Shown one piece after another: positions 19,575 to 41,354 of a stretch of DNA of 64,000 bases. The DNA is taken from NCBI GenBank assembly GCA_963704935.1, contig CAVPIF010000003.1, positions 1,128,004-1,192,003 on the forward strand, written 5' to 3'. Numbering within the stretch: position 1 is the first letter of the stretch; each line of letters starts with the position of its first letter. The stretch is from an uncultured Chloroflexia bacterium. GTDB lineage: Bacteria > Chloroflexota > Limnocylindria > Limnocylindrales > CSP1-4. The notes beneath the pieces were generated by a model. It made no database searches. It worked only from the letters and a program-made list of their open reading frames with translations, and was not told the origin of the DNA. The position numbers and the translations under genes were made by a program.

Positions 19575-19708
19575 CATGGCCCAAACGGCCAAGTAGAAAC
19601 CGCGGCGCCTCCCCGCCACCCTTGGAGGCATGACGGCGCGCTGGTCCGATCCAGGTCGACTCCCGGGCCCTCGGCCTGTTGCGACCCCGGGTACGCCCGC
19701 GCCGTCAG
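19575..19708 (+). repeat. Junction block copy P_b (LuxR 3' remnant plus LuxR-5'-like leader), not followed by a lysis cassette
   Basis: CATGGCCCAAACGGCCAAGTAGAAACCGCGGCGCCTCCCCGCCACCCTTGGAGGCATGACGGCGCGCTGGTCCGATCCA.. matches the blocks at 20512, 31710 and 41218. Similarity persists, with an insertion, to ..GGGTACGCCCGCGCCGTCA. Confidence 0.75.
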
Positions 19709-19796
19709 CGGTCGCCCTCCCAACGGACACGGGAGAAGCCAACCATGGGCAACCCGACAAGGACTGCAACCGCCGGCCGGGCCGGGCCGGACCCGG

Positions 19797-20186
19797 TCAG
19801 GCCGACGTGCGTAGGCGGGATCGCATCCCTGCCGGCCACGCGACGATTGCGAGAACCGCGACGGCGACGACGCCGACCTCCTCCGCAAGCCATGATCCGG
19901 GGATCAGCGCATAGCCGACCAGAATCGGGAGATTGACCGCGAGGAACAGACCCACCAGGGCACCGCCCACGGCCACGATGCGTAGCGGCACGGCACGCCC
20001 CGTCGTCGCCCTCCACGCCCAGAGTGCGACCGCGGTGGCCAGAAAAGCAGATCCTGCCAAGAACAGGAGGCCCACGACTCCGCCGGTCGTGTTGGTCCCA
20101 CCGTTCGCCCAGATGAGCAACGTCTTCACGATCCAGCACACGCCACCGATGGTGGCAAAGACACTGCTCATCGACGCCGGCCTCAT
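19797..20186 (-). CDS. Hypothetical four-TM membrane protein
   Basis: 129-aa ORF with four hydrophobic stretches and coding-like codon use. No family recognised. Confidence 0.5.
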   Translation of the reverse strand: MRPASMSSVFATIGGVCWIVKTLLIWANGGTNTTGGVVGLLFLAGSAFLATAVALWAWRATTGRAVPLRIVAVGGALVGLFLAVNLPILVGYALIPGSWLAEEVGVVAVAVLAIVAWPAGMRSRLRTSA

Positions 20187-20216
20187 GGCGCCACCGGCTC
20201 CCGTTCGTCGCCACCT

Positions 20217-20438
20217 ATGGAAGCCGCCATCGGTCGCCCCCCACCTACCGGGTGGTTGAGTGGTCGAGAACCTTGGATCACCGCAACGCTGGCCAACTAT
20301 ACGCTCCGGGTCGGCCCGGACGCCCTCGATTACCTAACGATCGTCATCGCCGCGTACGACGGGAAAGGTCACTCGCTCTTCGCGACCGCGGACCCGGGCG
20401 GCTGGTGGTGCGCGGAACCGGACGAAGTGATCTGCTGA
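20217..20438 (+). CDS. Hypothetical small protein
   Basis: 73-aa ATG-initiated ORF with non-repetitive composition (..YLTIVIAAYDGKGHSLFATADPGGWWCAEPDEVIC). No homolog recognised. Confidence 0.3.
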   Translation: MEAAIGRPPPTGWLSGREPWITATLANYTLRVGPDALDYLTIVIAAYDGKGHSLFATADPGGWWCAEPDEVIC

Positions 20439-20511
20439 GCCCCTGCCGCGGCCGCCGCCTGATGCGCCGGCACGTCTGACGACACGGTACCCACAGCCGG
20501 GAACCTGAGGC

Positions 20512-20649
20512 CATGGCCCAATCGGCCAAGTAGAAACCGCGGCGCCTCCCCGCCACCCTTGGAGGCATGACGGCGCGCTGGTCCGATCCACATCGACTCC
20601 TGGGTCCCCCCACCGGGTACGTCCGCGCCGTCAACCCCGCGGCGGCCCG
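20512..20649 (+). repeat. Junction block copy P_c preceding lysis cassette 1
   Basis: Same conserved block as 19575, 31710 and 41218. It contains a 28-codon ORF (ATG 20567, MTARWSDPHRLLGPPTGYVRAVNPAAAR) whose stop overlaps the next ATG. Confidence 0.75.
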
Positions 20650-20775
20650 ATGAGCGGGGTCGAGCTCGTCCTCGCCTTCCTCGCCGGGGTCGCCATGGGC
20701 ATCGCCCTCGACCGTTGGCTGCTCCCGTCCCTCGTTGATGCCTGGATCGACCGACTCCGCCGGCATGGGCAGTGA
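20650..20775 (+). CDS. Lysis cassette 1, gene 1: 41-aa single-TM peptide
   Basis: MSGVELVLAFLAGVAMGIALDRWLLPSLVDAWIDRLRRHGQ. Conserved at 31847 and 41355. It has one TM helix and a basic tail. Confidence 0.55.
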   Translation: MSGVELVLAFLAGVAMGIALDRWLLPSLVDAWIDRLRRHGQ

Positions 20776-20998
20776 CCGTGACGACGATGCGCCGGAGCAC
20801 CGCACCCGGGCCGACGACTACTCCTCGGCCCGGATCGGGGCCGCGGCTGCGCTCACGATCGTTCTCGTCCTGCTCCTCGTCCTCGACGTCGTCGTCCCCG
20901 GCTACGACGTTTCGCCCGGGACCCTCCTGCCTCTCCTGGGCGCGATCCTCGCGCTCCTGGGGCTCGAGGCCTCGGCCTTCTGGAGGGGCGTGAGATGA
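20765..20998 (+). CDS. Lysis cassette 1, gene 2: 77-aa two-TM holin-like protein
   Basis: Charged N-terminus, then two TM helices (IGAAAALTIVLVLLLVLDVVV; LLPLLGAILALLGLEA). Conserved in all three cassettes. Its stop overlaps the amidase start (ATGA). Confidence 0.6.
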   Translation: MGSDRDDDAPEHRTRADDYSSARIGAAAALTIVLVLLLVLDVVVPGYDVSPGTLLPLLGAILALLGLEASAFWRGVR

Positions 20999-21723
20999 CG
21001 ACGGTCACGGCCCTCCTGACCAACAAGGCCTACGGCTACCCGACGCGGGGGGCTCGGCGGCGCCGGAAGCCGTCGATCCTCGCCTGCCTCCACCAGACTG
21101 CCAACGCCAAGGCGACCGCGATGCAGGAGCGCGCCTACGCCAACCGGGCCGGCTCCGCTGGACCCTCGGCCACGGCGTACATCGACCGCGACGGCACGAT
21201 CGTCCGGGCGATCGACCCGGCCAAGTACGCGGCCTGGAGCCAGGGCGACGTCGCGCACCCCAACACGAAGATCCCGACGATCGCCGCCGCGGTCGCCTCG
21301 GGGGTGAACATGAACGAGTGGGTCCACGAGTCGATCGAGTGCTCGGGGGCAGGGTCAGAGCCCTACTCCGACGCCCAGTTCGAGAGCGTCGCCCGGCTCG
21401 TCGTCGCGGCGCACAAGGCCACGGGTCTGCCGATCAACCGCAGCACCGTGGTCACCCACGCCGACATCAACAGCGTGAGCCGCCGCAGCGACCCCTGGCC
21501 GCCGACCACCCGCGAGGCGAGGGTCAAGCGGGTCATCGCCAGAGCGAACGCGATCCTGCGACCGCCGATCGTGACCGTCACCGTCAAGGCGGGCGGCAGC
21601 CTCTCCGCGATCGCCGCGGCGCACGGGCTGACCCTGGCGGCCCTCCTCGCCTTCCCGGAGAACGCCAAGTACCGCGCCAAGCCTGGGCTCATCCACCCGG
21701 GCGACGTCGTCCGCGTGAAGTAG
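20995..21723 (+). CDS. Lysis cassette 1, gene 3: N-acetylmuramoyl-L-alanine amidase (Amidase_2/PGRP-type) with C-terminal LysM domain (endolysin)
   Basis: LACLHQTAN..ANRAGSAGPSATAYIDRDGTIVRAIDP..AAWSQGDV..VVTHADI is an amidase_2 pattern. The C-terminal VTVKAGGSLSAIAAAHGLTLAALLAFPENAKYRAKPGLIHPGDVVRV is a LysM domain. Confidence 0.9.
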   Translation: MTTVTALLTNKAYGYPTRGARRRRKPSILACLHQTANAKATAMQERAYANRAGSAGPSATAYIDRDGTIVRAIDPAKYAAWSQGDVAHPNTKIPTIAAAVASGVNMNEWVHESIECSGAGSEPYSDAQFESVARLVVAAHKATGLPINRSTVVTHADINSVSRRSDPWPPTTREARVKRVIARANAILRPPIVTVTVKAGGSLSAIAAAHGLTLAALLAFPENAKYRAKPGLIHPGDVVRVK

Positions 21724-21734
21724 CCGGAGGAGCC

Positions 21735-21935
21735 ATGGACACCCAGCCCGGCAAGATCTGGGGTCGTGAACCGGCGATGGTCCTCGCCCTCGTCCAGGCG
21801 GTCATCGCCCTCGTGGTCGCGTTCGGCCTCAACCTCGCACCCGACCAGATCGGCGCGATCCTCGCGGTCACGGCGGTCATCCTCGGCCTCATCACGCGCA
21901 GCAGGGTGAGCCCGGCGTCGGCCACCACCGAATGA
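21735..21935 (+). CDS. Lysis cassette 1, gene 4: 66-aa two-TM protein (second holin-like)
   Basis: GGAGGA lies 4 nt upstream of the ATG. MVLALVQAVIALVVAFGLNL and IGAILAVTAVILGLI form two TM helices. Conserved at 32965. Confidence 0.6.
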   Translation: MDTQPGKIWGREPAMVLALVQAVIALVVAFGLNLAPDQIGAILAVTAVILGLITRSRVSPASATTE

Positions 21936-22180
21936 GGGACGGGTACCTGCGCGGCTCGCTCCCGCGGACGCCGACCGCCCGCCAGGTCGACGTCCTCGCT
22001 GCGTTCGTCGCCGCCGGGGGTTCCGTGGCGGATGCGGCGGCGCGTGTCGGCGTCCGGCCAAGCACCGCGAAGCGACACCTCGCCGACCTGCGGGCGCGCT
22101 CGGGCCTCACGACGGAGCAGCTGATCTACGCGGGACGGGCTGGCGGCTGGCTGGTCGTCCCGAGCTTGGAGCCCAGCTGA
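21932..22180 (+). CDS. Lysis cassette 1, gene 5: 82-aa LuxR/GerE-type HTH protein (cassette-type paralogue)
   Basis: TARQVDVLAAFVAAGGSVADAAARVGVRPSTAKRHLADLRARSGLTTEQLIY has a GerE helix-turn-helix layout. The start overlaps the previous stop (ATGA). Confidence 0.8.
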   Translation: MRDGYLRGSLPRTPTARQVDVLAAFVAAGGSVADAAARVGVRPSTAKRHLADLRARSGLTTEQLIYAGRAGGWLVVPSLEPS

Positions 22181-22291
22181 GCGAGGCGCTCCGGTCCATT
22201 GTCCAGCCGCGTTTACTCTCATTACTTGACTTCCAGGCCAGGGTCCTCTCAATGAGCTCGACCTAGATCCCTCGGCCTCGGGAGAGTGGTG

Positions 22292-22720
22292 CTAGCGGGC
22301 GGAGCCGCGCGTCTGCCTCCAGCGGAACCAACCTGCTGCCAGAAGAAGGACCGCCATCCCGGCAAAGCCCGGGATCTCCCTCTCCGGAGCACCGCCGAGG
22401 TCACGGCCGACGATGTGCGACACGGCGTGGAGCGCCGCCCCGACCCCGACCCCGACGAGCGCGACAGTCAGCCCGTCCGCGCGAACGGACACGCCTGCTA
22501 GAAGGAGCACCAATCCGAGCCCGATCTGGAACGCACCGATGTCCTGCACGAAGTGCTGGTTGTACGGCTCGAACGTGGCAAGCGCCTCGAAGAAGGAACG
22601 CGGGTCGACCATCGCCCACAGGCCGAGCGCGATTAAGCCGACACCGCCGACGATCGCGACGGCGCGGGGCATCCGGGTTCCCAGGGTCGATGAGTCCCCG
22701 TCGATCTCGGGTGTTGCCAT
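22292..22720 (-). CDS. Hypothetical four-TM membrane protein, divergent from PadR
   Basis: 142-aa ORF with four hydrophobic helices. It shares an operator-containing intergenic region with the PadR gene at 22824. Confidence 0.6.
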   Translation of the reverse strand: MATPEIDGDSSTLGTRMPRAVAIVGGVGLIALGLWAMVDPRSFFEALATFEPYNQHFVQDIGAFQIGLGLVLLLAGVSVRADGLTVALVGVGVGAALHAVSHIVGRDLGGAPEREIPGFAGMAVLLLAAGWFRWRQTRGSAR

Positions 22721-22772
22721 TGGATCAGGTCCTCCTGCGCTGGTCCTGGAACTTGACAGGCGCTGCGCCAGC

Positions 22773-22801
22773 GACTATATATCGAACCACGATATATCGT
22801 C
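22773..22801. promoter_or_regulatory. AT-rich inverted repeat between divergent genes (candidate PadR operator)
   Basis: GACTATATATCG-aacca-CGATATATCGTC, complementary at 11 of 12 positions, lies 22 nt upstream of the PadR ATG in an otherwise GC-rich context. Confidence 0.5.
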
Positions 22802-22823
22802 CATCGTAAGAAGGTCTACGTCC

Positions 22824-23147
22824 ATGGTCACCAGGATCCCCGAGCTCGGCCGGTTTGCCGAGCCAGCGCTCCTCATCCTCGTCAGCCTTTCGGACGGGCC
22901 GAAGCACGGCTACGCGATCATGTCCGACGTAGAGGCCGGCACCGGCCGGCCGATGGGACCCGGAACCCTGTACGCAGCGCTCGCCCGTCTCGAGGAGCGC
23001 GGAATGATCGTGGCTCTCGCACCCGTCGACCGCCGCCGGCCCTACCGGCTGACCGCGCCGGGCGCCACGATCCTGGCCGAGCAGCTCCGCGAGCTCTCCG
23101 AGTTCGCGCAGCTTGGCCTCCGCCGGCTCGGCCGGACGCCCGACTGA
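22824..23147 (+). CDS. PadR-family transcriptional regulator
   Basis: ALLILVSLSDGPKHGYAIMSDVE..GPGTLYAALARLEERGMIV..RRPYRLTAPG. Confidence 0.9.
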   Translation: MVTRIPELGRFAEPALLILVSLSDGPKHGYAIMSDVEAGTGRPMGPGTLYAALARLEERGMIVALAPVDRRRPYRLTAPGATILAEQLRELSEFAQLGLRRLGRTPD

Positions 23148-23153
23148 CCGGGG

Positions 23154-23900
23154 TTGCGTCCCTTGATCGCCCTCCTCCTTCGCCTCTATCCATCGCGCTG
23201 GCGGGCCCGCTACGGCGACGAGTTCGAGCAGGTCCTCGCGGATCGTCCGCTCGGGCCGTTCGACGTGGCCGACGTCCTCCTGGGCGCGATCGATGCCCAT
23301 CTTCACCTCGGCGGCCTCGGAGCCGCGTCTGAACACCGAAAGGGGTTCGCGATGTCGCTTCGTATCGGGGGTATCGCCGCGCTCTTCGGGGCGCCGATCT
23401 GGGTCGGCGGATGGGTAGTCGCCAGTGGCGTTGTCGGCGACGTCGACACGAGAACGGCGGCCGCAATCTTGGTTGCCGGATCTCTTGCACTGCTCGTGGC
23501 GCTCGTCGGTCTCAGTGCCTTCCAGGCGCGGGTCCAACCGGTCCTGTCATGGCTGGCATTCGCCTTCCCGGCGGTCGGCACGGTCGGATTGCTGGTCGGC
23601 GCCCTCGGCGTCGCCCTTGGACGCGACGAGTTCATGGATGCCTTCTACTTCGGGCTCGGGACCTTCTTCCTCGGCTCCCTGCTGTTCGCGATCGCCACCT
23701 ACCTCGCAGCCGTCCTGTCACGTCCTGCGGCCGTGTTGCTGGGCGCGGCGCCGGTCCTCGCGATCGCCGGGGGAGGTGGACAGGGGTTCGCAGAGGTCAT
23801 CACCGTGGCAGCCTTGGTCTGCTTCACACTCGGCTGGTGCGCGCTGGGTGTCCAGGCGATCCGGCTGGACCGACCGGCGAACGCTCCTCGACCCGCCTGA
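23154..23900 (+). CDS. PadR-associated polytopic membrane protein
   Basis: The N-terminus LLLRLYPSRWRARYGDEFEQVL is typical of membrane proteins encoded after PadR genes, followed by ~6 TM helices. Confidence 0.75.
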   Translation: MRPLIALLLRLYPSRWRARYGDEFEQVLADRPLGPFDVADVLLGAIDAHLHLGGLGAASEHRKGFAMSLRIGGIAALFGAPIWVGGWVVASGVVGDVDTRTAAAILVAGSLALLVALVGLSAFQARVQPVLSWLAFAFPAVGTVGLLVGALGVALGRDEFMDAFYFGLGTFFLGSLLFAIATYLAAVLSRPAAVLLGAAPVLAIAGGGGQGFAEVITVAALVCFTLGWCALGVQAIRLDRPANAPRPA

Positions 23901-24122
23901 AGAGCCTAGATCGGTGCGATCGTGGTCGGGCTCGCGGGCGGCGGCCTCGCCTTACTCGGGCGCTCGTCGCGCCTGCTGGTTCGCTCCTGGCGATAGGTTC
24001 CTTCCGTCATCCGCGGTCTGCTTGTCTGGGCTCGACTTCTCGATCGTGTTGATCCCCCTGAGCTTGATCTGGCTCGTCGTCGGGCGCCTGATGTTGCGCG
24101 GCGCACCCCGTCGCAGGCCGGC

Positions 24123-24668
24123 ATGATCGCGGCGGCGCGCATCGTCTGGCTTCTGACCGGTGGCGTCTGGGCGACGCACGCGCTCGTTGGATTCGCCGAG
24201 CCCGAGTACTGGAACCCGGTCACCACCCTCGACTTTGCCGCAGTCTGGCTGTATAGCGCCGGTTTCCTGACCCTGGCGCTCACGGTAACCTTGCTCGGGC
24301 GTCTCGTTCCAACCCGCTCGGTGCGACGGGCGGCGATCGTGATGGCAATCGCGGCGTTGGTGACCGGGGTCGCGAACGGCATCGAGGACGGGCTCGGCGT
24401 GAAGTCGGTGGGGACCGTGTATGTCATCGGCGCGCTGGCGCTCCTGGTCGGCACGCTCGCACTTGTCGTTGCGCTGGCGCGAGCCGGTCCTGCGCGGCTC
24501 GCGTGGATGGCGGGTGGCCTCGCCATCGGGCTCCTACTCGTCAGCATCGGGGGCGGCCTGGTCATCCTCGGCACGCTGGGCGCCCTCGCGTTGAGGCCGG
24601 CCTGGTTCCTGGTCGCCGATCCGGAGCCACCCACCCCGACAGCCCCCGCGCGAAGGAGCGTCGAGTGA
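24123..24668 (+). CDS. Hypothetical polytopic membrane protein
   Basis: 181-aa ORF with 5-6 hydrophobic helices. The ATG is preceded in frame by a stop at 23994. Confidence 0.6.
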   Translation: MIAAARIVWLLTGGVWATHALVGFAEPEYWNPVTTLDFAAVWLYSAGFLTLALTVTLLGRLVPTRSVRRAAIVMAIAALVTGVANGIEDGLGVKSVGTVYVIGALALLVGTLALVVALARAGPARLAWMAGGLAIGLLLVSIGGGLVILGTLGALALRPAWFLVADPEPPTPTAPARRSVE

Positions 24669-24929
24669 GGAGCGGAGAGCAGCGGCGCGACGGGAGGCCG
24701 TGCGTGGTGGGCTCCTTGACTCCCACCGGGCCGGCCACGGGTACCTACGCGGCGCCCTCGCCGCAGGCGGCACGCGCGCAGCTCGCCTCGAGCTGCCCTG
24801 CCGAGATCGACCACCTATCCACCCCCCGGGGCCCGTGCGGGTTCGGACCCGTGGCCCGCAGGCGTAGCACCGCAGGCGTAGCACCGCAGGCGAATAGACC
24901 GCGCCAACCACGCCCTCAACGATTTGCGG

Positions 24930-25373
24930 GTGAAGCTCTGCACGGTCTGCGGCGTCGTCACCAGCCGCCCTCGTAGCCGCTGTACCGAGCACGCCCGGCA
25001 GTCCAACCGCAGCCGACATAACGCGCTGTACTGCACGCGGGCCTGGCAGCGTCTCAGCGCCCGCGTGCTGCTGGCGTGGCGTGGTGAGCACGGCAATTGG
25101 TGCCCGGGCTATCAGCGTCCAGCCCACCGCGCTGCCGACCTCACCGTCGATCACGTCGTGCCGCTGGCCGCGGGCGGCGCGCCGTTCGACATCGGCAACA
25201 CCGCGGTGCTATGCCGCTCCTGCAACTCGACGAAGGGTGCGTCAGTCGACGCGGACCTGGGTGGGGTAGCCCACATGGCGACGCGGCTCAACGCTGACCG
25301 CGCCGCGCGACTGTGTGCACGCGGCCGGGTTTCGCGTTTTGTGGGGGGTTTTCGCCAGTGGGGTACTGCATGA
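24930..25373 (+). CDS. HNH endonuclease (phage-type), copy 1
   Basis: KLCTVCG..RCTEH..DLTVDHVVPLAAGGAPFDIGNTAVLCRSCNSTKG gives CxxC..H..DH..N..CxxCN. The GTG at 24930 aligns with the start of copy 2 at 36225. Confidence 0.85.
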   Translation: MKLCTVCGVVTSRPRSRCTEHARQSNRSRHNALYCTRAWQRLSARVLLAWRGEHGNWCPGYQRPAHRAADLTVDHVVPLAAGGAPFDIGNTAVLCRSCNSTKGASVDADLGGVAHMATRLNADRAARLCARGRVSRFVGGFRQWGTA

Positions 25374-27076: not shown

Positions 27077-27092
27077 TGGTCGGGGCGAGAGG
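27077..27092 (+). repeat. att-like exact copy of the 3'-terminal 16 nt of tRNA-Pro(CGG)
   Basis: TGGTCGGGGCGAGAGG, followed by GATAGCCCCGCCACCAACGACCTTCCGATCACGATGCGCC with patchy similarity to the adjoining tRNA sequence (CGACCT, CGATGCGC). The LuxR ATG is 81 nt downstream. Confidence 0.75.
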
Positions 27093-27172: not shown

Positions 27173-27418
27173 ATGACACGCCGGTTGTCGCGCCCCGCCG
27201 GACGTGCCACCGACCGTGAGGTCGGCGTGGTCGCCGCGGTCCTGGCGGCCGGGTCGGAGAAGGCGGCCGCCCACCGCCTGGGGCTGTCGCACTCGACCGT
27301 GAAGCACCATCTGGCGAACGCGCGGTCCAAGGTGGGAGCGACGACGACCGCGCAACTGGTGTGGATCCTCGCATCGCGGCTGCTGGATGCGGAGGGAGGT
27401 AGTCAGGCCGACGAATAG
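27173..27418 (+). CDS. Small LuxR/GerE-type HTH protein (copy L2)
   Basis: MTRRLSRPAGRATDREVGVVAAVLAAGSEKAAAHRLGLSHSTVKHHLANARSKVGATTTAQLVWILASRLLDAEGG. Confidence 0.85.
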   Translation: MTRRLSRPAGRATDREVGVVAAVLAAGSEKAAAHRLGLSHSTVKHHLANARSKVGATTTAQLVWILASRLLDAEGGSQADE

Positions 27419-29289: not shown

Positions 29290-29313
29290 GGCCCCAGCGG
29301 CAGCGTGCACCGG

Positions 29314-29382
29314 TGGGGGCATACGACGACGGCGCAGCTCTTGTGGATCCTGGCTCGGCGGCTGCCGGAGCCTGAGGGCGGA
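29314..29382 (+). pseudogene. 3' fragment of the small LuxR gene (F1)
   Basis: ..WGHTTTAQLLWILARRLPEPEGG matches only the last ~23 codons of the family. Confidence 0.65.
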
Positions 29383-30182: not shown

Positions 30183-30223
30183 ACCGACCAGAGCACCGCC
30201 TCGGACGAGCTTCCCGGGCGGCC

Positions 30224-30338
30224 GCCGCACTCGACGGTGCAGCACCATCTGGCTAGCGCGCGCTCGAAGGTCGGCGCGGAGACGACGGCGCAGTTGGTGT
30301 GGATCCTGGCGCCGCGGCTGCCCGAGCCTGAGGGCGGT
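30224..30338 (+). pseudogene. 3' half of the small LuxR gene (F2)
   Basis: HSTVQHHLASARSKVGAETTAQLVWILAPRLPEPEGG. The N-terminal ~35 codons are absent. Confidence 0.7.
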
Positions 30339-30386
30339 GTCGATGCGGCGGAATCGTCGATGTATGCAACGACCCGACGGGCATTG

Positions 30387-30788
30387 TCAGCGCGAAGGCC
30401 CGCTTGGATGCCCTGCCCGTGCGCGGGACTCGTAGGTCGCCCGGATGGTCGGGTCGAGGAGATCCGGTGTGAGCCGGTCCAGCTGCGAGTCCCGGAATCG
30501 GAGACAGTTCTTGCCGCGGTCGAGCCCTGCCACCAGTTCGCCGAGATCATCCCGCGCGTCGAGTAGTCCGTCGAGGCCCACGACATAGAGACTCAGGTGG
30601 TGGCGCTGGCTGGCGACGGCGATGTAAGGCTCGCCGGCGAGGGTATAGAAGGGCATCCCGTGCTGGAACGACGGCTCCGCACCCGGGGAGAGCGCCAGGG
30701 TCCGGGCGTCGACGAGCTTGAGGGCCGGTCGACGGGCCTCTGGCGCCGCATCCCGGTATTCGGAAATGCTGTTGGCTTCGAGCTTCAT
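30387..30788 (-). CDS. DUF1801 (YdhG-like) domain protein
   Basis: ISEYRDAAPEARRPALKLV..GMPFYTLAGEPYIAVASQRHHLSLYV. The ATG at 30788 overlaps the MerR gene stop (ATGA). Confidence 0.75.
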   Translation of the reverse strand: MKLEANSISEYRDAAPEARRPALKLVDARTLALSPGAEPSFQHGMPFYTLAGEPYIAVASQRHHLSLYVVGLDGLLDARDDLGELVAGLDRGKNCLRFRDSQLDRLTPDLLDPTIRATYESRARAGHPSGPSR

Positions 30789-31618
30789 GCGTGGCTCCTC
30801 GTGCGGCGGACCGGCCACAGGACGTCAACTTCGAGGCCCGACGGGCCGGCCGCCGTCGGGTCGTTGCGGAAGATCTCCCGGGGCGGCCCGGCTGGCTGCA
30901 ATCCGTGGGCGGCCGACCAGGCTCCGAGGACGTGGTACGCCGCGGCGATCTCCCCGATGGGTCCGCGGTGACGTGTCTGAATGACATGGACGCCCGGTAG
31001 GGTCCTGCCTCGAATCTCGACAAGGTCCAAGTCGGGCCCACGAACGGGAATGGCGACCTCCAGATCGCCATCGGTCGCCTCGTCGATCACCGCGTGCAGC
31101 ACGAGCATGGGGTCGGCGGCCGGGGTCACGTCGGCATCCGCAAGCAGCGCCGCGAGGGATCCAAAGGCCTCTGCCACATCGGAGTCGACGGACCGGTGCG
31201 AGGTCCGGAAGCGGATCGCGGCGACGGGCTGGGGTGAGAGCCGCTGCTCGATCACCAGCTGCGCGGGGAAGGGATCGTCCTGCGTCACGAGCGTCTGGAG
31301 GCGCCGGACTCGCTCCCGTTGGACCTGCATGTCCGCCTCGAGCCTGGCTAGGTGGGTCTCGAGCCGGGCCAGAACTGCCTCTCGATCGGCCCGGTCGCCA
31401 AGGATCTCGCCGACCACCGCGAGTGGGACGCCGAGCTCACGCAGGAGCCGGATCGTCTCGGCGTCCCGGACTTGCTCAAGCGTGTAGCGCCGGTAGCCAG
31501 TAGCCGGATCGACATAGGTCGGGCGCAGCAGCCCGAGCGCGTCATACCTCCGCAGCGAACGTACCGAAAGCCGGACGAGTCGCGAGAAGCGCCCGATTGT
31601 GAACAGCGCAGTCATCAC
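30785..31618 (-). CDS. MerR-family regulator with GyrI-like effector-binding domain
   Basis: FTIGRFSRLVRLSVRSLRRYDALGLLRPTYVDPATGYRRY (MerR HTH), a coiled linker, and a C-terminal GyrI-like domain (IRFRTSH..PREIF). Confidence 0.9.
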   Translation of the reverse strand: MMTALFTIGRFSRLVRLSVRSLRRYDALGLLRPTYVDPATGYRRYTLEQVRDAETIRLLRELGVPLAVVGEILGDRADREAVLARLETHLARLEADMQVQRERVRRLQTLVTQDDPFPAQLVIEQRLSPQPVAAIRFRTSHRSVDSDVAEAFGSLAALLADADVTPAADPMLVLHAVIDEATDGDLEVAIPVRGPDLDLVEIRGRTLPGVHVIQTRHRGPIGEIAAAYHVLGAWSAAHGLQPAGPPREIFRNDPTAAGPSGLEVDVLWPVRRTRSHA

Positions 31619-31709
31619 CCACCCATGGTGCAGTCTCCCCCGGAGGGAGAGTCAAGCTCTGCGATCGCGGAAGCGATTCCGCGGGGCCGCACTACCTGCC
31701 ACGCACGGC

Positions 31710-31846
31710 CATGGCCCAATCGGCCAGCTAGAAACCGCAGCCCGCCGCCCGCACCCTTGGGGCATGACGGCGCGCCGGTCTGATCCACATCGACTCCCGG
31801 TTTCCCCCACCGTGTACGTCCGCGCCGTCAACACCGTGGAGGCCCG
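31710..31846 (+). repeat. Junction block copy P_d preceding lysis cassette 2
   Basis: CATGGCCCAATCGGCCAGCTAGAAACCGCAG..CCCTTGGGGCATGACGGCGCGCCGGTCTGATCCACATCGACTCC... Carries the 28-codon leader ORF from 31764. Confidence 0.75.
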
Positions 31847-31972
31847 ATGAGCGGGGCCGAGCTCGTCGCGGCGTTCCTCGCCGGCGTCGGCATGGGCGTC
31901 GCCCTCGACCGCTGGCTCCTGCCGTCCCTCGTCGATGCCTGGATCGACCGACTGCGCCGGCATGGGCAATGA
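31847..31972 (+). CDS. Lysis cassette 2, gene 1: 41-aa single-TM peptide
   Basis: MSGAELVAAFLAGVGMGVALDRWLLPSLVDAWIDRLRRHGQ, paralogue of 20650..20775. Confidence 0.55.
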   Translation: MSGAELVAAFLAGVGMGVALDRWLLPSLVDAWIDRLRRHGQ

Positions 31973-32192
31973 GCCTCTCGACGACGCACCCGAGCGCGTC
32001 CGGGCCGATGCCTACAGCTCAGCCCGGATCGGGGCCGCGGCCGCATTCACGCTCGTCCTGGTCGTGCTGCTCGTCCTCGATGTCGTCGTCCCGGGGTATG
32101 ACGTCAGCCCTGGGACCCTCCTCCCCCTTCTCGGCGCGATCCTCGCGCTCCTGGGGCTCGAGGCCGGTTCGCTCTGGAGGGGCGTGAGGTGA
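31962..32192 (+). CDS. Lysis cassette 2, gene 2: two-TM holin-like protein
   Basis: MGNEPLDDAPER..IGAAAAFTLVLVVLLVLDVVVPGYDVSPGTLLPLLGAILALLGLEAGSLWRGVR. Confidence 0.6.
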   Translation: MGNEPLDDAPERVRADAYSSARIGAAAAFTLVLVVLLVLDVVVPGYDVSPGTLLPLLGAILALLGLEAGSLWRGVR

Positions 32193-32953
32193 CCACCGTC
32201 ACAGCGCTCCTGACCAACAAGGCCTACGGCTACCCGACCCGTGGGGCCGGGCGGCGGGTCACGGCACCGATCCTCGCCTGCATCCACATCACCGGCAACC
32301 GCCGGACGGCCGCGAACCCCGACCGGCACCAGGCGGCGCGCGACGAGCGCAACTACGCGAACCGTGCGGGCTCGAACGGCCCGTCCGCCCACTACTACGT
32401 CGCCCGCGACGGCTGGGCGATCGAGGCCATCGACCCGGCCAAGCACGCGGCCTGGTCGAACGGCGACGTCGCGAGCCCGAACACGGCGAACGCCGGGGTG
32501 GCGAAGGTGCTCGCACTGCGCTCAGGGGGCTACAACGCCAACGAGGCGTACTGGCTCGAGTTCGAGTGCGTCGGCTATGGCTCGACGTACCCGATCACGA
32601 AGGCACAGCAGCAGTTCTGCGCCACCCGGATCGCCGTGATGGCGAAGGCGACGGGGCTGCCGGTGAACCGCGACACGGTCCATGGCCACAGCGACATAAA
32701 CAGCGTCAACCGGGCGTCCTGCCCCTGCCCCAAGGCGGGCCGCGAGGCGTTCCTCGGCGCTGTCATCGCCCGCGCCAACGCGATCCTTCGGCCACCGATC
32801 ACCACGGTCACCGTGAAGTCGGGCGACAGCCTGTCCGCGATCGCCGCCGCGCACGGCCTGACGCTCAAGGCCCTCCTGGCCTTCCCGGAGAACGCCAAGT
32901 ACCGGGCCAAGCCCGGACTCATCCACCCGGGCGACATCGTGCGCGTGAAGTGA
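32189..32953 (+). CDS. Lysis cassette 2, gene 3: Amidase_2 + LysM endolysin
   Basis: The GTG start overlaps the previous stop. ILACIHITGN..GPSAHYYVARDGWAIEAIDP..AAWSNGDV..VHGHSDI. The C-terminal LysM domain is nearly identical to copy 1, while the catalytic middle is strongly diverged. Confidence 0.9.
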   Translation: MTTVTALLTNKAYGYPTRGAGRRVTAPILACIHITGNRRTAANPDRHQAARDERNYANRAGSNGPSAHYYVARDGWAIEAIDPAKHAAWSNGDVASPNTANAGVAKVLALRSGGYNANEAYWLEFECVGYGSTYPITKAQQQFCATRIAVMAKATGLPVNRDTVHGHSDINSVNRASCPCPKAGREAFLGAVIARANAILRPPITTVTVKSGDSLSAIAAAHGLTLKALLAFPENAKYRAKPGLIHPGDIVRVK

Positions 32954-33873: not shown

Positions 33874-33928
33874 GGGGCGACCGGCAGGCGGAGGCGAACA
33901 GGGGCAGCAAGGGCACGAACCTGGGTGG

Positions 33929-34747: not shown

Positions 34748-34770
34748 CGGGGGACGCAGCCTCGCTAGAT

Positions 34771-34797
34771 GTCACACTAGTCTTGTCACTAGTGAGT
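34771..34797. promoter_or_regulatory. Twin ACTAGT palindromes in the cupredoxin/TetR divergent intergenic region (candidate TetR operator)
   Basis: GTCACACTAGTCTTGTCACTAGTGAGT, with TCACTAGTGA a perfect 10-bp palindrome. It lies 25 nt upstream of the TetR ATG. Confidence 0.45.
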
Positions 34798-34821
34798 GAG
34801 ATAGGTAGAGTGAACCGCGTC

Positions 34822-35466: not shown

Positions 35467-35474
35467 ACGGGCCG

Positions 35475-36158: not shown

Positions 36159-36224
36159 CTGGTCCCGCAGGCGTAGCACCGCAAGCGAATAGACCGCGCC
36201 CGCCTTCCAGCCGACGATTCGCGG

Positions 36225-36668
36225 GTGAAGCTGTGCACGGTCTGCGGTGTCGCCACCAGCCGCACTGGTAGCCGCTGCGCCGAGCACGCACGGCAGTCCA
36301 ACCGCAGCAGGCACAACGCCCTGTACAGCACGCGGGCATGGCAGCGTCTCAGCGCCCGCGTGCTGCTGGCGTGGCGTGGTGAGCACGGCAATTGGTGCCC
36401 GGGCTATCAGCGTCCAGCCCACCGCGCTGCCGACCTCACCGTCGACCACGTCGTGTCGCTCGCCGCTGGCGGTGCGCCGTTCGACATCGCCAACACCGCG
36501 GTGCTATGCCGCTCCTGCAACTCGACGAAGGGTGCGTCAGTCGACGCGGACCGGGGTGGGGTAACCCATATGGGGCCACGGCTGAACGCTGACCGCGCCG
36601 CGCGACCGTGTGCACGCGGCCGGGTTTCGCCCGTTATGGGGGGTTTTCGCCAGTGGGGTGGTGCATGA
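36225..36668 (+). CDS. HNH endonuclease (phage-type), copy 2
   Basis: Paralogue of 24930..25373 with the same CxxC/DH/N/CxxCN layout. By eye ~90 percent nucleotide identity. Confidence 0.85.
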   Translation: MKLCTVCGVATSRTGSRCAEHARQSNRSRHNALYSTRAWQRLSARVLLAWRGEHGNWCPGYQRPAHRAADLTVDHVVSLAAGGAPFDIANTAVLCRSCNSTKGASVDADRGGVTHMGPRLNADRAARPCARGRVSPVMGGFRQWGGA

Positions 36669-36964
36669 GCGCTGACGCCGAGGCTGTCGCTGCGTCGGCG
36701 ACGATCGCCCTCCGCGCGAGCCTCGCGCCGCCGCGCCACTGCCCGGCCTGCGGCGCCAAGCTCCCGTATCTCGGTGGGCGGGGCAGGCCGCGCCGGTGGT
36801 GCGACGCCCATCATCCGCGTCCCTCGCGGCTTCGACCGCGGGCGTCCCAGGGCTCCGGCGTGCCCGCGGCCACGCTCGCGAGGGCGTGCGCGCGGAGATC
36901 CCGCCCCGCGATCTCGCTGACTGTCCGCCCGTGGGCGCCCACGTCGGCCGACGTGGCGCAATGA
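36665..36964 (+). CDS. Possible small zinc-ribbon protein, copy 2 (doubtful)
   Basis: MSADAEAVAASATIALRASLAPPRHCPACGAKLPYLGGRGRPRRWC... The C-terminal frame differs from copy 1. Confidence 0.3.
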   Translation: MSADAEAVAASATIALRASLAPPRHCPACGAKLPYLGGRGRPRRWCDAHHPRPSRLRPRASQGSGVPAATLARACARRSRPAISLTVRPWAPTSADVAQ

Positions 36965-37016
36965 ACTCGAGGGTGGCATGGACGCGACCCGACCCAGATA
37001 GTGGCCCGGGGCTGCC

Positions 37017-38228
37017 CTATGGCATGGGCCGCGCACTCCGTGCCGGGCCGACGATCCCCTCCTCGTAGGCCCTGAGAAGGTCGAACAGCTCGGTCGCTGC
37101 GTACTGGCGGTCGTACGTGCCCTCGCTCAGCTGGCGGATGACCCCAGCCTCGGCCAGCGCCTTGAGCGCGGCGAGCGTCTGCTGCTGGCTGACGCCGATC
37201 GCCGCGCGGGCGGTCGGCGCGGACAGCGCCGGCAGCGCGGGGAGCAGCGCGATGAGCTTGCTCGCCGCTGATCCAGCCCTTGGGCGGCCGGCGCGCTCAC
37301 GCCACTCGCTCTGGAGCGCCGCCACCTGGTCCGCGAGCTCGATCGACGCGGCCGCCGCTCGCCCGGCTGCCTCGGAGAAGGAGCCGATCCACGCGGCAAC
37401 GCGCCCTTCGCGGAACGCCGTGAGCCCCTCGACGTAGGCGGTGGGCCGGGCCGCCAGGACGATGCTGACCGGCGGGACAAACCGGGCGGCGACACCGCGG
37501 CGCCGCAGCACCACGTGGATGAGGGCCCGGCCGACGCGGCCGTTGCCGTCGATGAAGGGGTGGATGGTTTCGAACTGCGCGTGGGCGATGGCCGCCTGCG
37601 CCACCGCGGGCAGGTCGTCCCGGGCGACGAAGGCAGCGAGGTCCTCAAGCAGCGGCATGACGATGTCCTCGGGCGGCGGCACGAAGACCGCATCGGACGG
37701 GTTCCCGAGCCGGCCACCGATCCAGTTCTGCTCCTCGCGCACTCGGCCGGGTCGCGCCCGCTCGTCGCCCGCCATGAGCACCGCGTGGATCGCCAGCAGG
37801 TCGGCGACGGTCACCGGCTCCGTGCGGTCCCCGATCGTGATCGCCTCCTCCATCGCGGACACGTTCGCCGCGACGATCCTGGCGCTGCCCCGTGCCGCCC
37901 GAGGGTCGATCAGCGCCCGGGCGAGGTTGAGCGAGGAGACGTCGTAGCCCTCGATCCGGGACGACGCCACGGCCTCCGATCGCAGGAGCAGCGGGCCGAT
38001 CGCTTCGAGGCCGCCCACCGAGGCGCGCTCGTTGAGCGCCCGGATCGCCGCCTCCGCATCCGCCGACAGGTCGGCGACTTCGAACGGGACGACGGGGCTG
38101 AGCGCGGCGATCTCGTCAGGGACGAATGCCTGGTACCGGAACGAGGCACGCGCCCGGCGTCCACCCACCGCGCCAGGGTCTCCTTCCCAAGTCCGCTCGA
38201 CGGTCCTCGGCACACGGCCTCCTGTCAC
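37017..38228 (-). CDS. Fic-family protein, copy 2 (identical to copy 1)
   Basis: The 403-aa translation is identical to 25726..26937, at an offset of 11291 nt. Confidence 0.95.
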   Translation of the reverse strand: MTGGRVPRTVERTWEGDPGAVGGRRARASFRYQAFVPDEIAALSPVVPFEVADLSADAEAAIRALNERASVGGLEAIGPLLLRSEAVASSRIEGYDVSSLNLARALIDPRAARGSARIVAANVSAMEEAITIGDRTEPVTVADLLAIHAVLMAGDERARPGRVREEQNWIGGRLGNPSDAVFVPPPEDIVMPLLEDLAAFVARDDLPAVAQAAIAHAQFETIHPFIDGNGRVGRALIHVVLRRRGVAARFVPPVSIVLAARPTAYVEGLTAFREGRVAAWIGSFSEAAGRAAAASIELADQVAALQSEWRERAGRPRAGSAASKLIALLPALPALSAPTARAAIGVSQQQTLAALKALAEAGVIRQLSEGTYDRQYAATELFDLLRAYEEGIVGPARSARPMP

Positions 38229-38367
38229 AACCCTTCAGTCTCTTTGCATAAATGAAGGAATAAGACGAGGCTGCACCCATAACCCTTCAATGTCAACTGG
38301 AAATCCAAGGGAAGCGAGGGGCGCCAATGTCGCGACGCAGGTGTCGCCGATCTCGCAACTCAAGAAT

Positions 38368-38383
38368 TGGTCGGGGCGAGAGG
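38368..38383 (+). repeat. att-like exact copy of the 3'-terminal 16 nt of tRNA-Pro(CGG)
   Basis: TGGTCGGGGCGAGAGG in the same context as 27077. Confidence 0.75.
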
Positions 38384-38463
38384 GATAGCCCCGCCACCAA
38401 CGACCTTCCCATCACGATGCGGCTCGCTGAGCCGTCAGAGCCGCTCGAGCTGGTCCGCAGCGC

Positions 38464-38712
38464 ATGACGCGACGGTCATCCCGCCACGCCGCCGAACTTG
38501 CCACCGACCGTGAGGTCGGGGTGGTCGCCGCCGTCATCGCGGCTGGCTCCGAGAAGGCGGCTGCTCACCGCCTGGGCCTGTCGCACTCGACCGTGAAGCA
38601 CCATCTGGCGAATGCGCGGTGCAAGGTGGGGGCGGAGACGACGGCGCAGTTGGTATGGATCCTCGGTCCGCGGCTGCCGCAGCCGGACGGCGCGGCACAA
38701 GCGGACGACTGA
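38464..38712 (+). CDS. Small LuxR/GerE-type HTH protein (copy L3)
   Basis: MTRRSSRHAAELATDREVGVVAAVIAAGSEKAAAHRLGLSHSTVKHHLANARCKVGAETTAQLVWILGPRLPQPDG. Confidence 0.85.
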   Translation: MTRRSSRHAAELATDREVGVVAAVIAAGSEKAAAHRLGLSHSTVKHHLANARCKVGAETTAQLVWILGPRLPQPDGAAQADD

Positions 38713-38793
38713 GACCGGCAGGACACGTGGACAGCTCTTGACCGAGCGGGCCGCACGGCACAGGATGATGGTCTGATCACATGGCAGGGGACA

Positions 38794-39006
38794 GTGCCGA
38801 TGACCGGGAACATCGCGGTAGCCGCCGTTTACATCGCCTTCGCAGTCGCGTGGGTCATCGGGGCTTGGCTGGTCGGCGTGACCGCCGGCAGGCGGGGATA
38901 CAGCCCGGTGGTGTGGGGCGTCTTCTCGCTCGTCGTGTCGCCCGTCGTCGGGGTGGTGCTGCTCGCCCTCGTCACGCCCAGGCGCGGGCCTCGGGCGGGA
39001 TCGTAA
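38794..39006 (+). CDS. Hypothetical small two-TM membrane protein
   Basis: 70-aa ORF ending in TAA, with IAVAAVYIAFAVAWVIGAWLVGV and VVWGVFSLVVSPVVGVVLLALV. Confidence 0.5.
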   Translation: MPMTGNIAVAAVYIAFAVAWVIGAWLVGVTAGRRGYSPVVWGVFSLVVSPVVGVVLLALVTPRRGPRAGS

Positions 39007-39060
39007 GGCGATCGGGCAGCCGACTGACCATCAGACGTCCCGTCGCCCCACACTTGGGGC

Positions 39061-39330
39061 ATGACGGCGAGCTGGTCCGATCCACACCATGCGTAGGCTC
39101 CCGGATCCCCCACCTGGTCAGAAAAGGCGGCGGCCCATCGGCTCGGCCTGTCGCAATCGACGGTCAAACACCATCTGGCGAATGCGCGATCGAAGGTCGG
39201 AGCGGTGACGACGGCGCAGCTGGTCTGGATCCTCGGCCCGCGGCTGCCTGAGCCCGAGGGTCTGGCCCAAACGGACGAGCAGCGGCTTGTGAGGCATACC
39301 CGGCGGGAATCTCGACACGGAACGCCTTGA
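39061..39330 (+). pseudogene. Degenerate small LuxR gene (F3) with junction-block-type 5' end and premature stop
   Basis: ATGACGGCGAGCTGGTCCGATCCACACCATGCGTAG (MTASWSDPHHA-stop), then in frame ..SEKAAAHRLGLSQSTVKHHLANARSKVGAVTTAQLVWILGPRLPEPEGLAQTDE.. with the normal stop replaced by CAG. Confidence 0.6.
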
Positions 39331-39340
39331 CGGGGACGCT

Positions 39341-39364
39341 GTCTCCGCACGACGATGCGGAGAC
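39341..39364 (+). terminator. Perfect 8-bp stem hairpin after the degenerate LuxR copy (possible intrinsic terminator, no U-tract)
   Basis: GTCTCCGC-acgacgat-GCGGAGAC. Confidence 0.35.
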
Positions 39365-39413
39365 GGGCCGTGGGGCAGCCGACCGCCGATGACCGAGAGA
39401 GGGGGGGACTTCG

Positions 39414-39953
39414 ATGAGCACCGACGGGATTGACACCCTGACCGACGGAGTGATCACGCTTCGACCGTGGCGGCACGATAACTGGCGGGCGGTCTTTCAT
39501 GCCTGCCAGGACGACCTGATTGCGCGCTTCACGCCGATTCCACTTCCCTACACGGAGGACTCGGCGCACGGCTTCATCTCGATGTGCGAGGACGCTTGGA
39601 CGACGGGCCGCGAGCATCCGTTCGCCATCGCCGACGCCGCCACCGACGCCGTGCTCGGCTCGATCACCCGGCACGCCCCGTGGGGCCACTCCGTCCAGTT
39701 CGGCTACTGGGTCGCGGCGGAGGCGCGGGGCCGGGGCGTCGCCACCCGCGCGCTCCGGCTGATCGCCGACTGGACGCTCGCCACCACGGACCTGGTCCGG
39801 CTCGACCTCTACACGCACCCGGAGAACCACGTCTCCGGCCGCGTGGCGCTGGGGGCCGGCTTCGCCCTCGAGGGCGTGCGGCGGGCGTGGGAACTCGACC
39901 GGGACGGCAACCCCGAGGACGCGATCTTCTACGTACTCGTCCGGGGCGCGTAG
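39414..39953 (+). CDS. GNAT-family N-acetyltransferase (RimJ/RimL-like)
   Basis: ITLRPWRHDNW..FGYWVAAEARGRGVATRALRLIADW..NHVSGRVALGAGFALEG. Confidence 0.9.
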   Translation: MSTDGIDTLTDGVITLRPWRHDNWRAVFHACQDDLIARFTPIPLPYTEDSAHGFISMCEDAWTTGREHPFAIADAATDAVLGSITRHAPWGHSVQFGYWVAAEARGRGVATRALRLIADWTLATTDLVRLDLYTHPENHVSGRVALGAGFALEGVRRAWELDRDGNPEDAIFYVLVRGA

Positions 39954-39993
39954 CGTGCGGCTCCTGCACGCGCACGCTGCGCGCGCTGAGCGC

Positions 39994-40239
39994 ATGACAC
40001 GACGGCCGTCCCGCCCCGCCGGATGCGCCACCGACCGCGAGCTCGCGGTGGTCGCCGCGGTCCTCGCCGCCGGATCCGAGAAGGCGGCCGCCCACCGCCT
40101 TGGCTTGGCGCACTCGACCGTCAGGCACCACTTGGCGAACGCCCGGTCGAAGGTGGGAGCGACGACCACGGCCCAGCTGGTCTGGATCCTGGCGCGGCGG
40201 CTGCCTGAGCCCGAGGCCGCGGTCCAAACGGAGGAGTAG
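39994..40239 (+). CDS. Small LuxR/GerE-type HTH protein (copy L4)
   Basis: MTRRPSRPAGCATDRELAVVAAVLAAGSEKAAAHRLGLAHSTVRHHLANARSKVGATTTAQLVWILARRLPEPEAAVQTEE. Confidence 0.85.
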   Translation: MTRRPSRPAGCATDRELAVVAAVLAAGSEKAAAHRLGLAHSTVRHHLANARSKVGATTTAQLVWILARRLPEPEAAVQTEE

Positions 40240-40268
40240 CGCCTACCCGCCGATGACGTTGCGAGCCC

Positions 40269-41108
40269 TCAGCCGCCCGCTGGCTTGATGGCCGTGGCGA
40301 TCGCAAGTAGCTGGTCGAGGGTCATGTCCGCCTCGTTGCCGACCAGCGCGACGCCATCCGGGCCGACCATCCACTGCAGCAGCAGCTCGCCCGACTCGGG
40401 CTCGCGCAGGAGCACGCCCGGGCTGCCGCCGATCTGGACGGTGCTCCGCTCCGGGCCGCCGCCGATCTGGGTCGCCGCGCCGAACGCCTGGTAGAGGTCG
40501 AGCTGGCCCCGGCCGCGGTTGCTACCAGTCACGTGCGAGCCGGCCGGGGCGTAGACGCGCACCCAAAGCGGGGGCTCGGCCGCCGGCTCGTCGCCCGACC
40601 ATTGCAGCTGCCACCCCGACGGCAGGACCTGCGGCTCCGCGAGGCCGGAAGGCGGCCTGACCCACAGGGTCCCGCCGGCGACGTCGTGGACCGTGGAGCC
40701 GGTGAACGGGGCCGGCAGAAGCAGGTGGAAGGTGTACCCGTGGCCGACGGCGGCGCAGGCCACGTTCGGCGGCGCCGTCGCCTGGTCGGGGTGCGGGACG
40801 AGCACCACCGCAACCTGGAGGTCGGGGCCTGCGGTTGCCACCCACGGCGCGTAGTCGGTCGAGCAGAAGTCCCCCGGCGTGTACGCGAGGCCGCCGGTGA
40901 AGCTGAGCGTCAGCGTCCGGCCGTCGGCGCTGATCGTCGCGTCGTCGACGCGGGTCTGCTGGTCGGCCGGTGGCTCCGGCGGGTAGTCGGGGCCGAAGGT
41001 CTGCTCGTAGGGCTTCGGCGACGACGGCGGCGCTCCAGGTCCCGCCGAGCATGCCGCGGCGACAACCGCCAGCACCACAACCGCCATCCACCGCGACAAC
41101 TCGGACAC
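40269..41108 (-). CDS. Hypothetical lipoprotein
   Basis: Signal peptide plus lipobox (VVLAVVAAACSAG). 279 aa. No family recognised. Confidence 0.7.
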   Translation of the reverse strand: MSELSRWMAVVVLAVVAAACSAGPGAPPSSPKPYEQTFGPDYPPEPPADQQTRVDDATISADGRTLTLSFTGGLAYTPGDFCSTDYAPWVATAGPDLQVAVVLVPHPDQATAPPNVACAAVGHGYTFHLLLPAPFTGSTVHDVAGGTLWVRPPSGLAEPQVLPSGWQLQWSGDEPAAEPPLWVRVYAPAGSHVTGSNRGRGQLDLYQAFGAATQIGGGPERSTVQIGGSPGVLLREPESGELLLQWMVGPDGVALVGNEADMTLDQLLAIATAIKPAGG

Positions 41109-41217
41109 CCCAATGCAGCGGGCCTCCCGCAGGCCTCCTCACAGGATGTCGGACGCGGACGGGAACGCGCAAGTTCCGTTTGACTCCATGGCTTCCGATC
41201 GAGCCCGGTCTGGAACC

Positions 41218-41354
41218 CATGGCCCAAACGGCCAACTAGAAACCGCGGCCCGGCGCCGCCACCCTTCCGTCATGACGGCGCGCTGGTCTGATCCACACCG
41301 ACTCCCGGGTCCCCCCGCCGGGTACGTCCGCGCCGTCAACGCCGCAGGTGCCCG
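41218..41354 (+). repeat. Junction block copy P_e preceding lysis cassette 3
   Basis: CATGGCCCAAACGGCCAACTAGAAACCGCGG..CATGACGGCGCGCTGGTCTGATCCACACCGACTCCCGGG... It is preceded by GAGCCCGGTCTGG, which resembles the LuxR 3' end. Confidence 0.75.

Follow-up and report, generated by a model that had tools for sequence, protein, structure and literature searches.

Within a 64,000-nt stretch of the genome of an uncultured Chloroflexia bacterium (contig CAVPIF010000003.1, positions 1,128,004 to 1,192,003; the whole stretch is called the window below), a short sequence block recurs in front of genes that resemble a phage lysis cassette, and the question is what this block is for. It begins like the 3' end of a small LuxR gene and continues with a 28-codon open reading frame (ORF). 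The original prediction regarded the block as the junction of a LuxR 3' remnant with a diverged LuxR 5' end, and the cassette as inserted into, or driven from, a split LuxR gene. Here, we argue that the block is most likely a variation on a known phage layout and does not represent a split LuxR gene. According to the reading we prefer, to which we assign a probability of roughly 0.6, it is the cis-acting late-operon control region of a temperate-phage family and of the remnants of these phages in Limnocylindria-type Chloroflexota.

The motif CATGGCCCAAWCGGCCA has exactly four matches in the window, all on the plus strand (0.04 expected), and these lie at positions 19575, 20512, 31710 and 41218, precisely where four blocks had been proposed; the four copies can be aligned over 123-135 nt. 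Copy A (20512-20635, plus strand) serves as the reference. Its 5' part is a LuxR tail containing the palindrome TGGCC-N5-GGCCA (20514-20528), followed by the LuxR stop codon TAG, which lies within a -35-like box TAGAAA (20531-20536). A variable spacer of 17 nt separates this box from the -10-like box CACCCT (20554-20559), and the conserved core begins at the ATG at 20567. This ATG, as well as its equivalents at 31764 in copy B (31710-31832, plus strand, before cassette B) and at 41272 in copy C (41218-41340, plus strand, before the truncated cassette C), opens the 28-codon ORF (MTARWSDPHRLLGPPTGYVRAVNPAAAR; 20567-20653, plus strand, with the equivalents 31764-31850 and 41272-41358). In all three cases the TGA of the ORF shares bases with the start of the cassette's first gene; the overlap reads ATGA at 20650 and 31847 and GTGA at 41355, which verifies this element of the prediction. 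The remaining copy (19575-19709, plus strand) indeed lacks a cassette: over its initial 78 nt it hardly differs from copy A, the 3' half is of a variant type with 11 nt inserted in a loop, and a minus-strand ORF follows.

The first cassette gene encodes p41, a 41-residue peptide with a single transmembrane (TM) segment (20650-20775, plus strand; also 31847-31972 and 41355-41480). It is followed by the gene of p87, an 87-residue holin-like protein with two TM segments (20735-20998, plus strand; also 31935-32192 and 41443-41703), and by that of an Amidase_2 endolysin with a LysM-like tail (20995-21723, plus strand; also 32189-32953, and a truncated copy at 41700-41936). The Amidase_2 protein matches phage endolysin families. 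For p41 and p87, no match to a holin family was obtained in Pfam or PHROG; TM topology and the position beside the endolysin gene suggest a holin role for them. When p87 loci were fetched across the family, the block was found directly upstream in 29 of 29, and in about 35 of the 45 full-length block copies of the genus p41 starts 15 nt downstream. With a sequence-only covariance model, we found 78 block matches in the genus (39 of 131 genomes), and matches in 41 of 151 genomes, representing 26 of the 49 genera sampled, in the family. Note that the copies are related across genomes, so that these counts are not independent; moreover, many of the genomes are metagenome-assembled genomes (MAGs) with likely indel errors, and a few frameshifted ORF copies may be artefacts. 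The exact core of the block is also present in three viral contigs of IMG/VR (L155, L156 and L157), which are described below.

Why does the block start like the end of a LuxR gene? In the relatives L041, L017, L100, L079 and L089, an intact or near-intact LuxR ORF (..LVWILAPRLPEPDD-MAQTAK*) continues directly into the block. Nucleotides 1-21 of the block are the true end of a GerE/LuxR gene, i.e. its last seven codons with TAG as the stop codon, and the LuxR 3' remnant postulated at the start of the block is borne out by these loci. The window itself contains an intact small GerE/LuxR gene encoding 81 residues (27173-27418, plus strand) and the paralogues 18472-18801, whose tail is replaced, 38464-38712 and 39955-40239; LuxR genes ending in ..GGCCCAAACGGACGAG, as predicted, are present at 39266-39290, 11866-11886 and 40219-40239. 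A block stub had been suspected after position 11887: the LuxR 3' remnant (11811-11890, plus strand, 82% to other LuxR ends) is genuine, but the core-like continuation is not significant with the block profile. Further LuxR 3' remnants lie at 29312-29380 and 30219-30338. The LuxR proteins of the window match Pfam GerE with E-values of 2.5e-7 to 8.5e-6, above the cut-off, and the only hits of the LuxR-type protein were GerE, HTH_1 and, weakly, Sigma70_r4_2 in Pfam and the 'sigma factor' family phrog_3282 in PHROG.

The window copies, together with more than 25 others, have unrelated flanks, and their homology sets in sharply at (C)ATGG. In about 20 loci, a LuxR gene on the same strand lies 0.44-1.4 kb upstream of the block, with approximately one cargo gene's worth of DNA between them; likewise, in each unit of the window one cargo gene and a distance of 0.9-1.4 kb separate the block from the LuxR end upstream of it. 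We propose that most copies have either lost the LuxR body or acquired a cargo gene between LuxR and block, and that this gives the block its appearance of a 'junction'. The cargo intervals between LuxR end and block are 18709-19574, 30339-31709 and 40240-41217 in the window, and repeatedly the cargo is exactly one gene, encoding a methyltransferase, a MerR/GyrI-like protein, a 279-residue protein without known function, or others. The spot between regulator and late promoter is suggested to be a preferred site for the insertion of cargo genes of the 'moron' type. In the diverged locus L147, the order is LuxR stop, 39 nt, a 27-codon ORF, overlap, p41 and p87. This layout of a diverged lineage supports the notion that the cassette is driven from a LuxR-linked region.

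The conservation of the block was determined for 42 non-identical cassette-linked copies. Entropy is 1.77 bits in the upstream flank, 0.26 bits in the tail palindrome and about 1.0 bits in the spacer; it is 0.27 bits in the 5' half and 0.12 bits in the 3' half of the core, and 0.99 bits in the 14-nt linker before p41. For codon positions 1, 2 and 3 of p41, the values are 0.35, 0.40 and 0.67 bits. In the 28-codon ORF they are 0.31, 0.27 and 0.27 bits (17 copies), compared with 0.24, 0.29 and 0.61 bits for p41 in the same copies. Because all three codon positions vary equally and the core is less variable than p41, the core is conserved as a nucleic acid, that is, as a cis-acting DNA or RNA element and not as a peptide, and it is conserved more strongly than p41. 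Of 38 non-identical copies, 32 retain both the frame of the ORF and the stop/start overlap, with ORF lengths of 28, 29 or 32 codons. The overlap also occurs before two other types of downstream genes, namely gene X (ATGA) and an HNH-like ORF (GTGA), both introduced below; the overlap proposed for the first cassette gene thus holds well beyond the window.

The segment between the LuxR tail and the core resembles a promoter. It contains the conserved boxes TAGAAA, which holds the LuxR stop, and CACCCT, of which nAnnnT is kept in all variants; the spacer between them is variable in sequence and constant in length (17 nt), and CACCCT ends 6-7 nt before the ATG. A sister leader family, which is unrelated in sequence, lies upstream of diverged p41/p87 genes in the loci L134-L149 of genus g24 (e.g. 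L148:1230-1370), and the block model finds no match in these loci. The sister leaders carry a near-consensus TTGACG-17-TAGACC, followed after 6 nt by a GTG, which opens a 26-codon ORF overlapping the p41 start as ATGA; in addition, they contain the motif GGACGTCC and a 13-bp GC hairpin in which the bulge varies and the loop measures 7-14 nt. The two families match in geometry: TTGACG-17-TAGACC-6-GTG in the sister family corresponds to TAGAAA-17-CACCCT-6/7-ATG in the block. The layout of regulator, short ORF and holin-like genes is old, because L147 keeps the order LuxR, short ORF, p41, p87, and the sequence of the ORF is not conserved between the lineages.

A core that is conserved as a nucleic acid might be a self-contained structured RNA, for example an attenuator, an antiterminator target or a riboswitch-like leader. 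A long-range stem GACGGCGCG/CGCGCCGTC together with an inner hairpin would then set read-through or the translation of p41 without a dedicated protein. The inverted repeats are in fact conserved, the variable sites as well as two insertion variants (11-12 nt) sit in predicted loops, and the GC stem of the sister family is found at the equivalent place. However, Rfam yielded no match in the block, neither at the gathering threshold nor at E<=5, and the folding of single sequences, performed for both strands, was not distinctive (z-scores from +0.7 to -2.2). RNAalifold on 16 copies gave a covariation term of +0.38, and in explicit pair counts (76 copies, 74 distinct) just 1 of 1293 cells was compensatory, covariation being the same as after shuffling. 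The predicted stems (GACGGCGCG/CGCGCCGTC, CCCGG/CCGGG and the tail hairpin) are broken in the divergent copies G016a and G016b, and no U-tract follows them; the promoter scan showed only a weak terminator-like hairpin on the minus strand, in the spacer of two copies. We consider a stand-alone RNA switch of this kind very unlikely.

Could the core instead be what the original prediction had seen in it, namely the diverged 5' end of a second LuxR gene, with the cassette inserted into a split LuxR? Leader and LuxR both begin with GCATGACG. In a semi-global alignment, the leader peptide scored 33 against LuxR N-termini (MT.R.S ... G.V.AV..AG), compared with 18.4 +/- 4.8 for shuffled sequences (p ~0.01); 0.65% of the N-termini encoded in the genome score as well. 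In six copies, the core is joined in a roughly colinear manner to a LuxR body, in two of them in frame (L068 and L042). The degenerate copy that had been reported for position 39061 is genuine as well: in this hybrid (39010-39143, plus strand), a tail-like stretch, a spacer and the 5' half of the core are fused to the LuxR body 39118-39290. Its ATG at 39061 encodes MTASWSDPHHA*, and the LuxR body follows from about residue 28, although an internal stop and a frame change intervene. In contrast, the nhmmer, Smith-Waterman and hhalign comparisons were all negative. An nhmmer search with the block profile in the whole 3.08-Mb genome (E<=10) returned block copies only and not a single LuxR 5' end; Smith-Waterman alignments of the core DNA with four LuxR 5' regions were no better than shuffles (z-scores from -0.9 to +1.35); and hhalign assigned the pairing of leader and LuxR a probability of 0.7%, the best match being the LuxR C-terminus. 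The hybrids lack LuxR helix 1, most of them are out of frame, and their fusion points vary and show microhomology; they have the appearance of deletion products that arose between a block and the LuxR gene following it. Furthermore, in diverged lineages the interval from the promoter (or LuxR) to p41 is already occupied by an unrelated 24-27-codon ORF. A split LuxR gene is thus the least probable of the explanations considered here.

The three viral contigs connect the block to phages and indicate what it precedes there. In L156, the order is block, p41, p87, Amidase_2 protein, HTH82, further genes, ParB-methyltransferase and TerS. In L157, the same ATG of the block opens a 65-codon ORF whose stop overlaps (GTGA) an HNH-like ORF; behind it lie the genes of a ParB-methyltransferase, TerS (E 5e-31) and TerL (E 3e-84). 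In L155, where the gene of a 518-residue serine integrase adjoins LuxR, the block leads via an ATGA overlap into the 114-residue gene X, a papain-like peptidase with SH3 domain, and HTH82. From these three gene sets and from the 29 of 29 p87 loci, the block marks the head of a late operon, comprising lysis and/or packaging genes, whichever gene comes first. Gene X (MSGDEPGVIAITQRELLLEMREDIR..; L155:5031-5375, minus strand; also in L070 and L058) replaces p41/p87 directly after the block and has this position in several MAGs, too; the gene X set looks like an alternative lysis cassette under the same control block. L157 additionally contains two genes for sigma factors of the extracytoplasmic function (ECF) type (4436-5056 and 5979-6551, both plus strand), which lie on the opposite strand between LuxR and block and adjoin a partial second block.

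Combining these observations, we propose the following mode of action for a late-operon control region. In the ancestral layout, a small GerE/LuxR gene would end inside the block, with the operator-like palindrome TGGCC-N5-GGCCA in its last seven codons and its TAG stop in the -35-like box, followed by the fixed 17-nt spacer and the -10-like nAnnnT. The ATG, 6-7 nt past the -10-like box, would probably lie at or near the 5' end of the transcript. From there, an almost invariant core of about 70 nt with GC-rich inverted repeats could be read as the 28-codon ORF, whose stop and the first late gene's start codon overlap. A LuxR-type protein, or another phage regulator, would switch on the weak promoter or the leader late in the lytic cycle, and translation of the short ORF would deliver ribosomes to the holin-like first gene. 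The small LuxR-type protein, whose gene adjoins the block in the native arrangement, is the obvious candidate for the regulator.

Several observations weigh against this proposal. A scan for consensus sigma-70 promoters found none in the block, because the boxes are far from consensus. The 28-codon ORF shows no third-position excess in the 17 copies, unlike p41, so that its translation is putative; the predicted stems lack covariation. In the phage contigs L155-L157, LuxR is located 2-6 kb from the block and not adjacent to it, and in L155 its place beside the integrase gene could equally fit a role in lysogeny or excision. The protein stands outside the known late-activator families, since it matches only GerE, HTH_1 and, weakly, Sigma70_r4_2. 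Finally, a purely regulatory role explains incompletely the sharp CATGG left edge in more than 25 unrelated flanks.

The proposed layout can be compared with known systems. In lambdoid phages, the late control region has the order Q gene, pR', qut, tR', S R Rz, cos/terminase. As in lambda, the regulator gene ends just before a compact and highly conserved promoter/leader of the late operon, this operon opens with lysis genes and continues into packaging genes, and the region is a mosaic module with sharp borders around which cargo ('moron') genes accumulate. The differences are that the candidate regulator is an 81-residue GerE/LuxR helix-turn-helix (HTH) protein and not Q, that there is no sign of pausing, antitermination or a terminator (no U-tract), that the leader is an ORF presumably coupled to the first late gene, and that the host belongs to the Chloroflexota. 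Translational coupling of upstream ORFs or leader peptides via ATGA overlaps is a general bacterial mechanism. The block shares with it a short ORF that ends on the start of the next gene, whose length and frame are kept in the 32 of 38 copies mentioned above and whose last codons vary freely; it differs in that nucleotides are equally conserved at all codon positions, the ORF being embedded in a DNA/RNA element. The late activators RinA, LtrC and ArpU of Gram-positive phages bind a promoter upstream of terS (PMC3152322, PMC3753634). Here, too, there would be a small phage-encoded activator, for which we have a candidate, and a single promoter before a packaging-plus-lysis operon, and in both cases satellites exploit the switch. 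By Pfam and PHROG, however, the LuxR-type protein is not a member of these families, and in L156 lysis genes precede packaging genes, unlike in staphylococcal phages.

The copies of the window are parts of larger units. The 3'-terminal 16 nt of a tRNA-Pro(CGG) gene (43446-43522, minus strand) are repeated a short distance before LuxR genes, at 27077-27092 and 38368-38383, and the units have the form attachment site (att), LuxR, cargo, block, lysis cassette, HTH/PadR, HNH, Fic. The HNH endonuclease gene downstream of cassette A lies at 24924-25373 (plus strand). It was the only hit of its kind in a Pfam search of the window from 9 to 45 kb, which found no integrase, recombinase or transposase, and no structural genes were found in the units. 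Because the 16-nt tRNA-Pro 3' repeats bound the units, these are arranged in tandem at the tRNA gene, in the region 18-43 kb, and their gene content is that of integrase-less prophage remnants or satellite-like elements. The whole array is flanked by Kelch-repeat genes that are 96% identical (15876-17113 and 42074-43311). The arrangement is similar to the tandem accretion of cis-mobilizable elements (CIMEs) at tRNA genes, in that the units are bounded by the 16-nt copies and have no integrase. Such accretion describes the islands that carry blocks, whereas the block itself is not an att repeat, and the related L155 has a serine integrase. Three assignments were rejected on these grounds. The block is not the att site of the islands, whose att core is the tRNA-Pro 16-mer at 27077 and 38368; it is not another att or attC site, given that truncation points are scattered and no integrase is found in the window between 9 and 45 kb; and it is not the end of a transposon or a miniature inverted-repeat transposable element, as TGGCC-N5-GGCCA occurs only in the four block copies and has no inverted partner in the window.

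A more general form of this idea deserves attention: the block might be mainly a recombination joint, i.e. an att-like or 'portable homology' site that swaps cargo and alternative cassettes, and its conservation would then reflect exchange and not gene control. This would account for the abrupt start of homology at (C)ATGG in the more than 25 unrelated flanks, for partial copies whose many truncation points (model positions 53 to 107) adjoin other DNA, and for the single cargo gene between LuxR and block in the approximately 20 loci. It would also fit the tandem pairs of a 5'-partial and a full block around 0.85-2.2 kb of cargo, which occur in the window (19575/20512) and in L079, L081 and L125. 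Similarly, the methyltransferase|block junction of the 19575 copy is common to the source genome (G000) and its relative G099, with different cassettes behind it. On the other hand, the right-side breakpoints are scattered and do not define a single crossover point, the window contains no recombinase linked to the block, the att core of the islands is a different sequence, and the palindrome has no inverted counterpart at any other place in the window. Relative to the first gene behind it, the block keeps a constant orientation and spacing, as expected for a control region, and similar sharp joints result from phage mosaicism plus selection for intact modules. We regard a primary role in recombination as unlikely; the joint-like behaviour may have come about secondarily, in a module that is conserved within mosaic phage genomes.

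A more far-reaching model, which we put forward as doubtful in its entirety, would unite both aspects in a previously undescribed late switch of Chloroflexota phages. In this model, a GerE protein resembling sigma region 4, and encoded right up to the weak promoter, would act on that promoter. Translation of the (possibly leaderless) 28-codon ORF in the near-invariant 70-nt leader would open the long-range stem and hand ribosomes over to the holin-like gene. The 125-nt module would at the same time be the favoured joint for the exchange of lysis cassettes among phages, satellites and prophage remnants, and for the uptake of single cargo genes between regulator and promoter.

If the block is a late-operon control region, it opens a way into poorly charted phages. 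To our knowledge, next to nothing has been learned so far about how Chloroflexota phages control their genes, and the hosts, Limnocylindria, are an uncultured soil and freshwater lineage. The block, which is present in 26 genera or more and shows stronger conservation than the proteins encoded behind it, offers a sequence handle for prophages, satellites and remnants. Together, the small GerE protein and the block constitute a concrete candidate pair of regulator and target that can be tested in vitro. The recurring LuxR fragments, lysis cassettes and single cargo genes in the tRNA-Pro islands would find their explanation as stacked, decaying phage-derived units.

Some individual copies are worth describing. 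The source genome (3.08 Mb, 70% G+C) harbours two further full block copies outside the window, both with a cassette (G000:C1:1673763 and G000:C3:1386412-1386550) and each 4-7 kb from a contig end; judging from these positions, the assembly probably breaks at such repeated phage-derived units. In L060 and L109 (G095:C156, at a contig end), two head-to-head blocks share the tail palindrome, an arrangement that may stem from misassembly instead of a true inversion. In L078 (G067:C278) and L074, the block and the first 7 codons of p41 are fused to a different GerE-like HTH protein (..TSRQVDVLAAFVATGGSVAEAA..), and this fusion is another mosaic joint at the block. In L067 and L077 (G083 and G082), block and cassette are separated by 60-110 nt from a tRNA gene's 3' end, and in L067 a LuxR remnant of 55 nt is placed between the tRNA gene and the block with its cassette.

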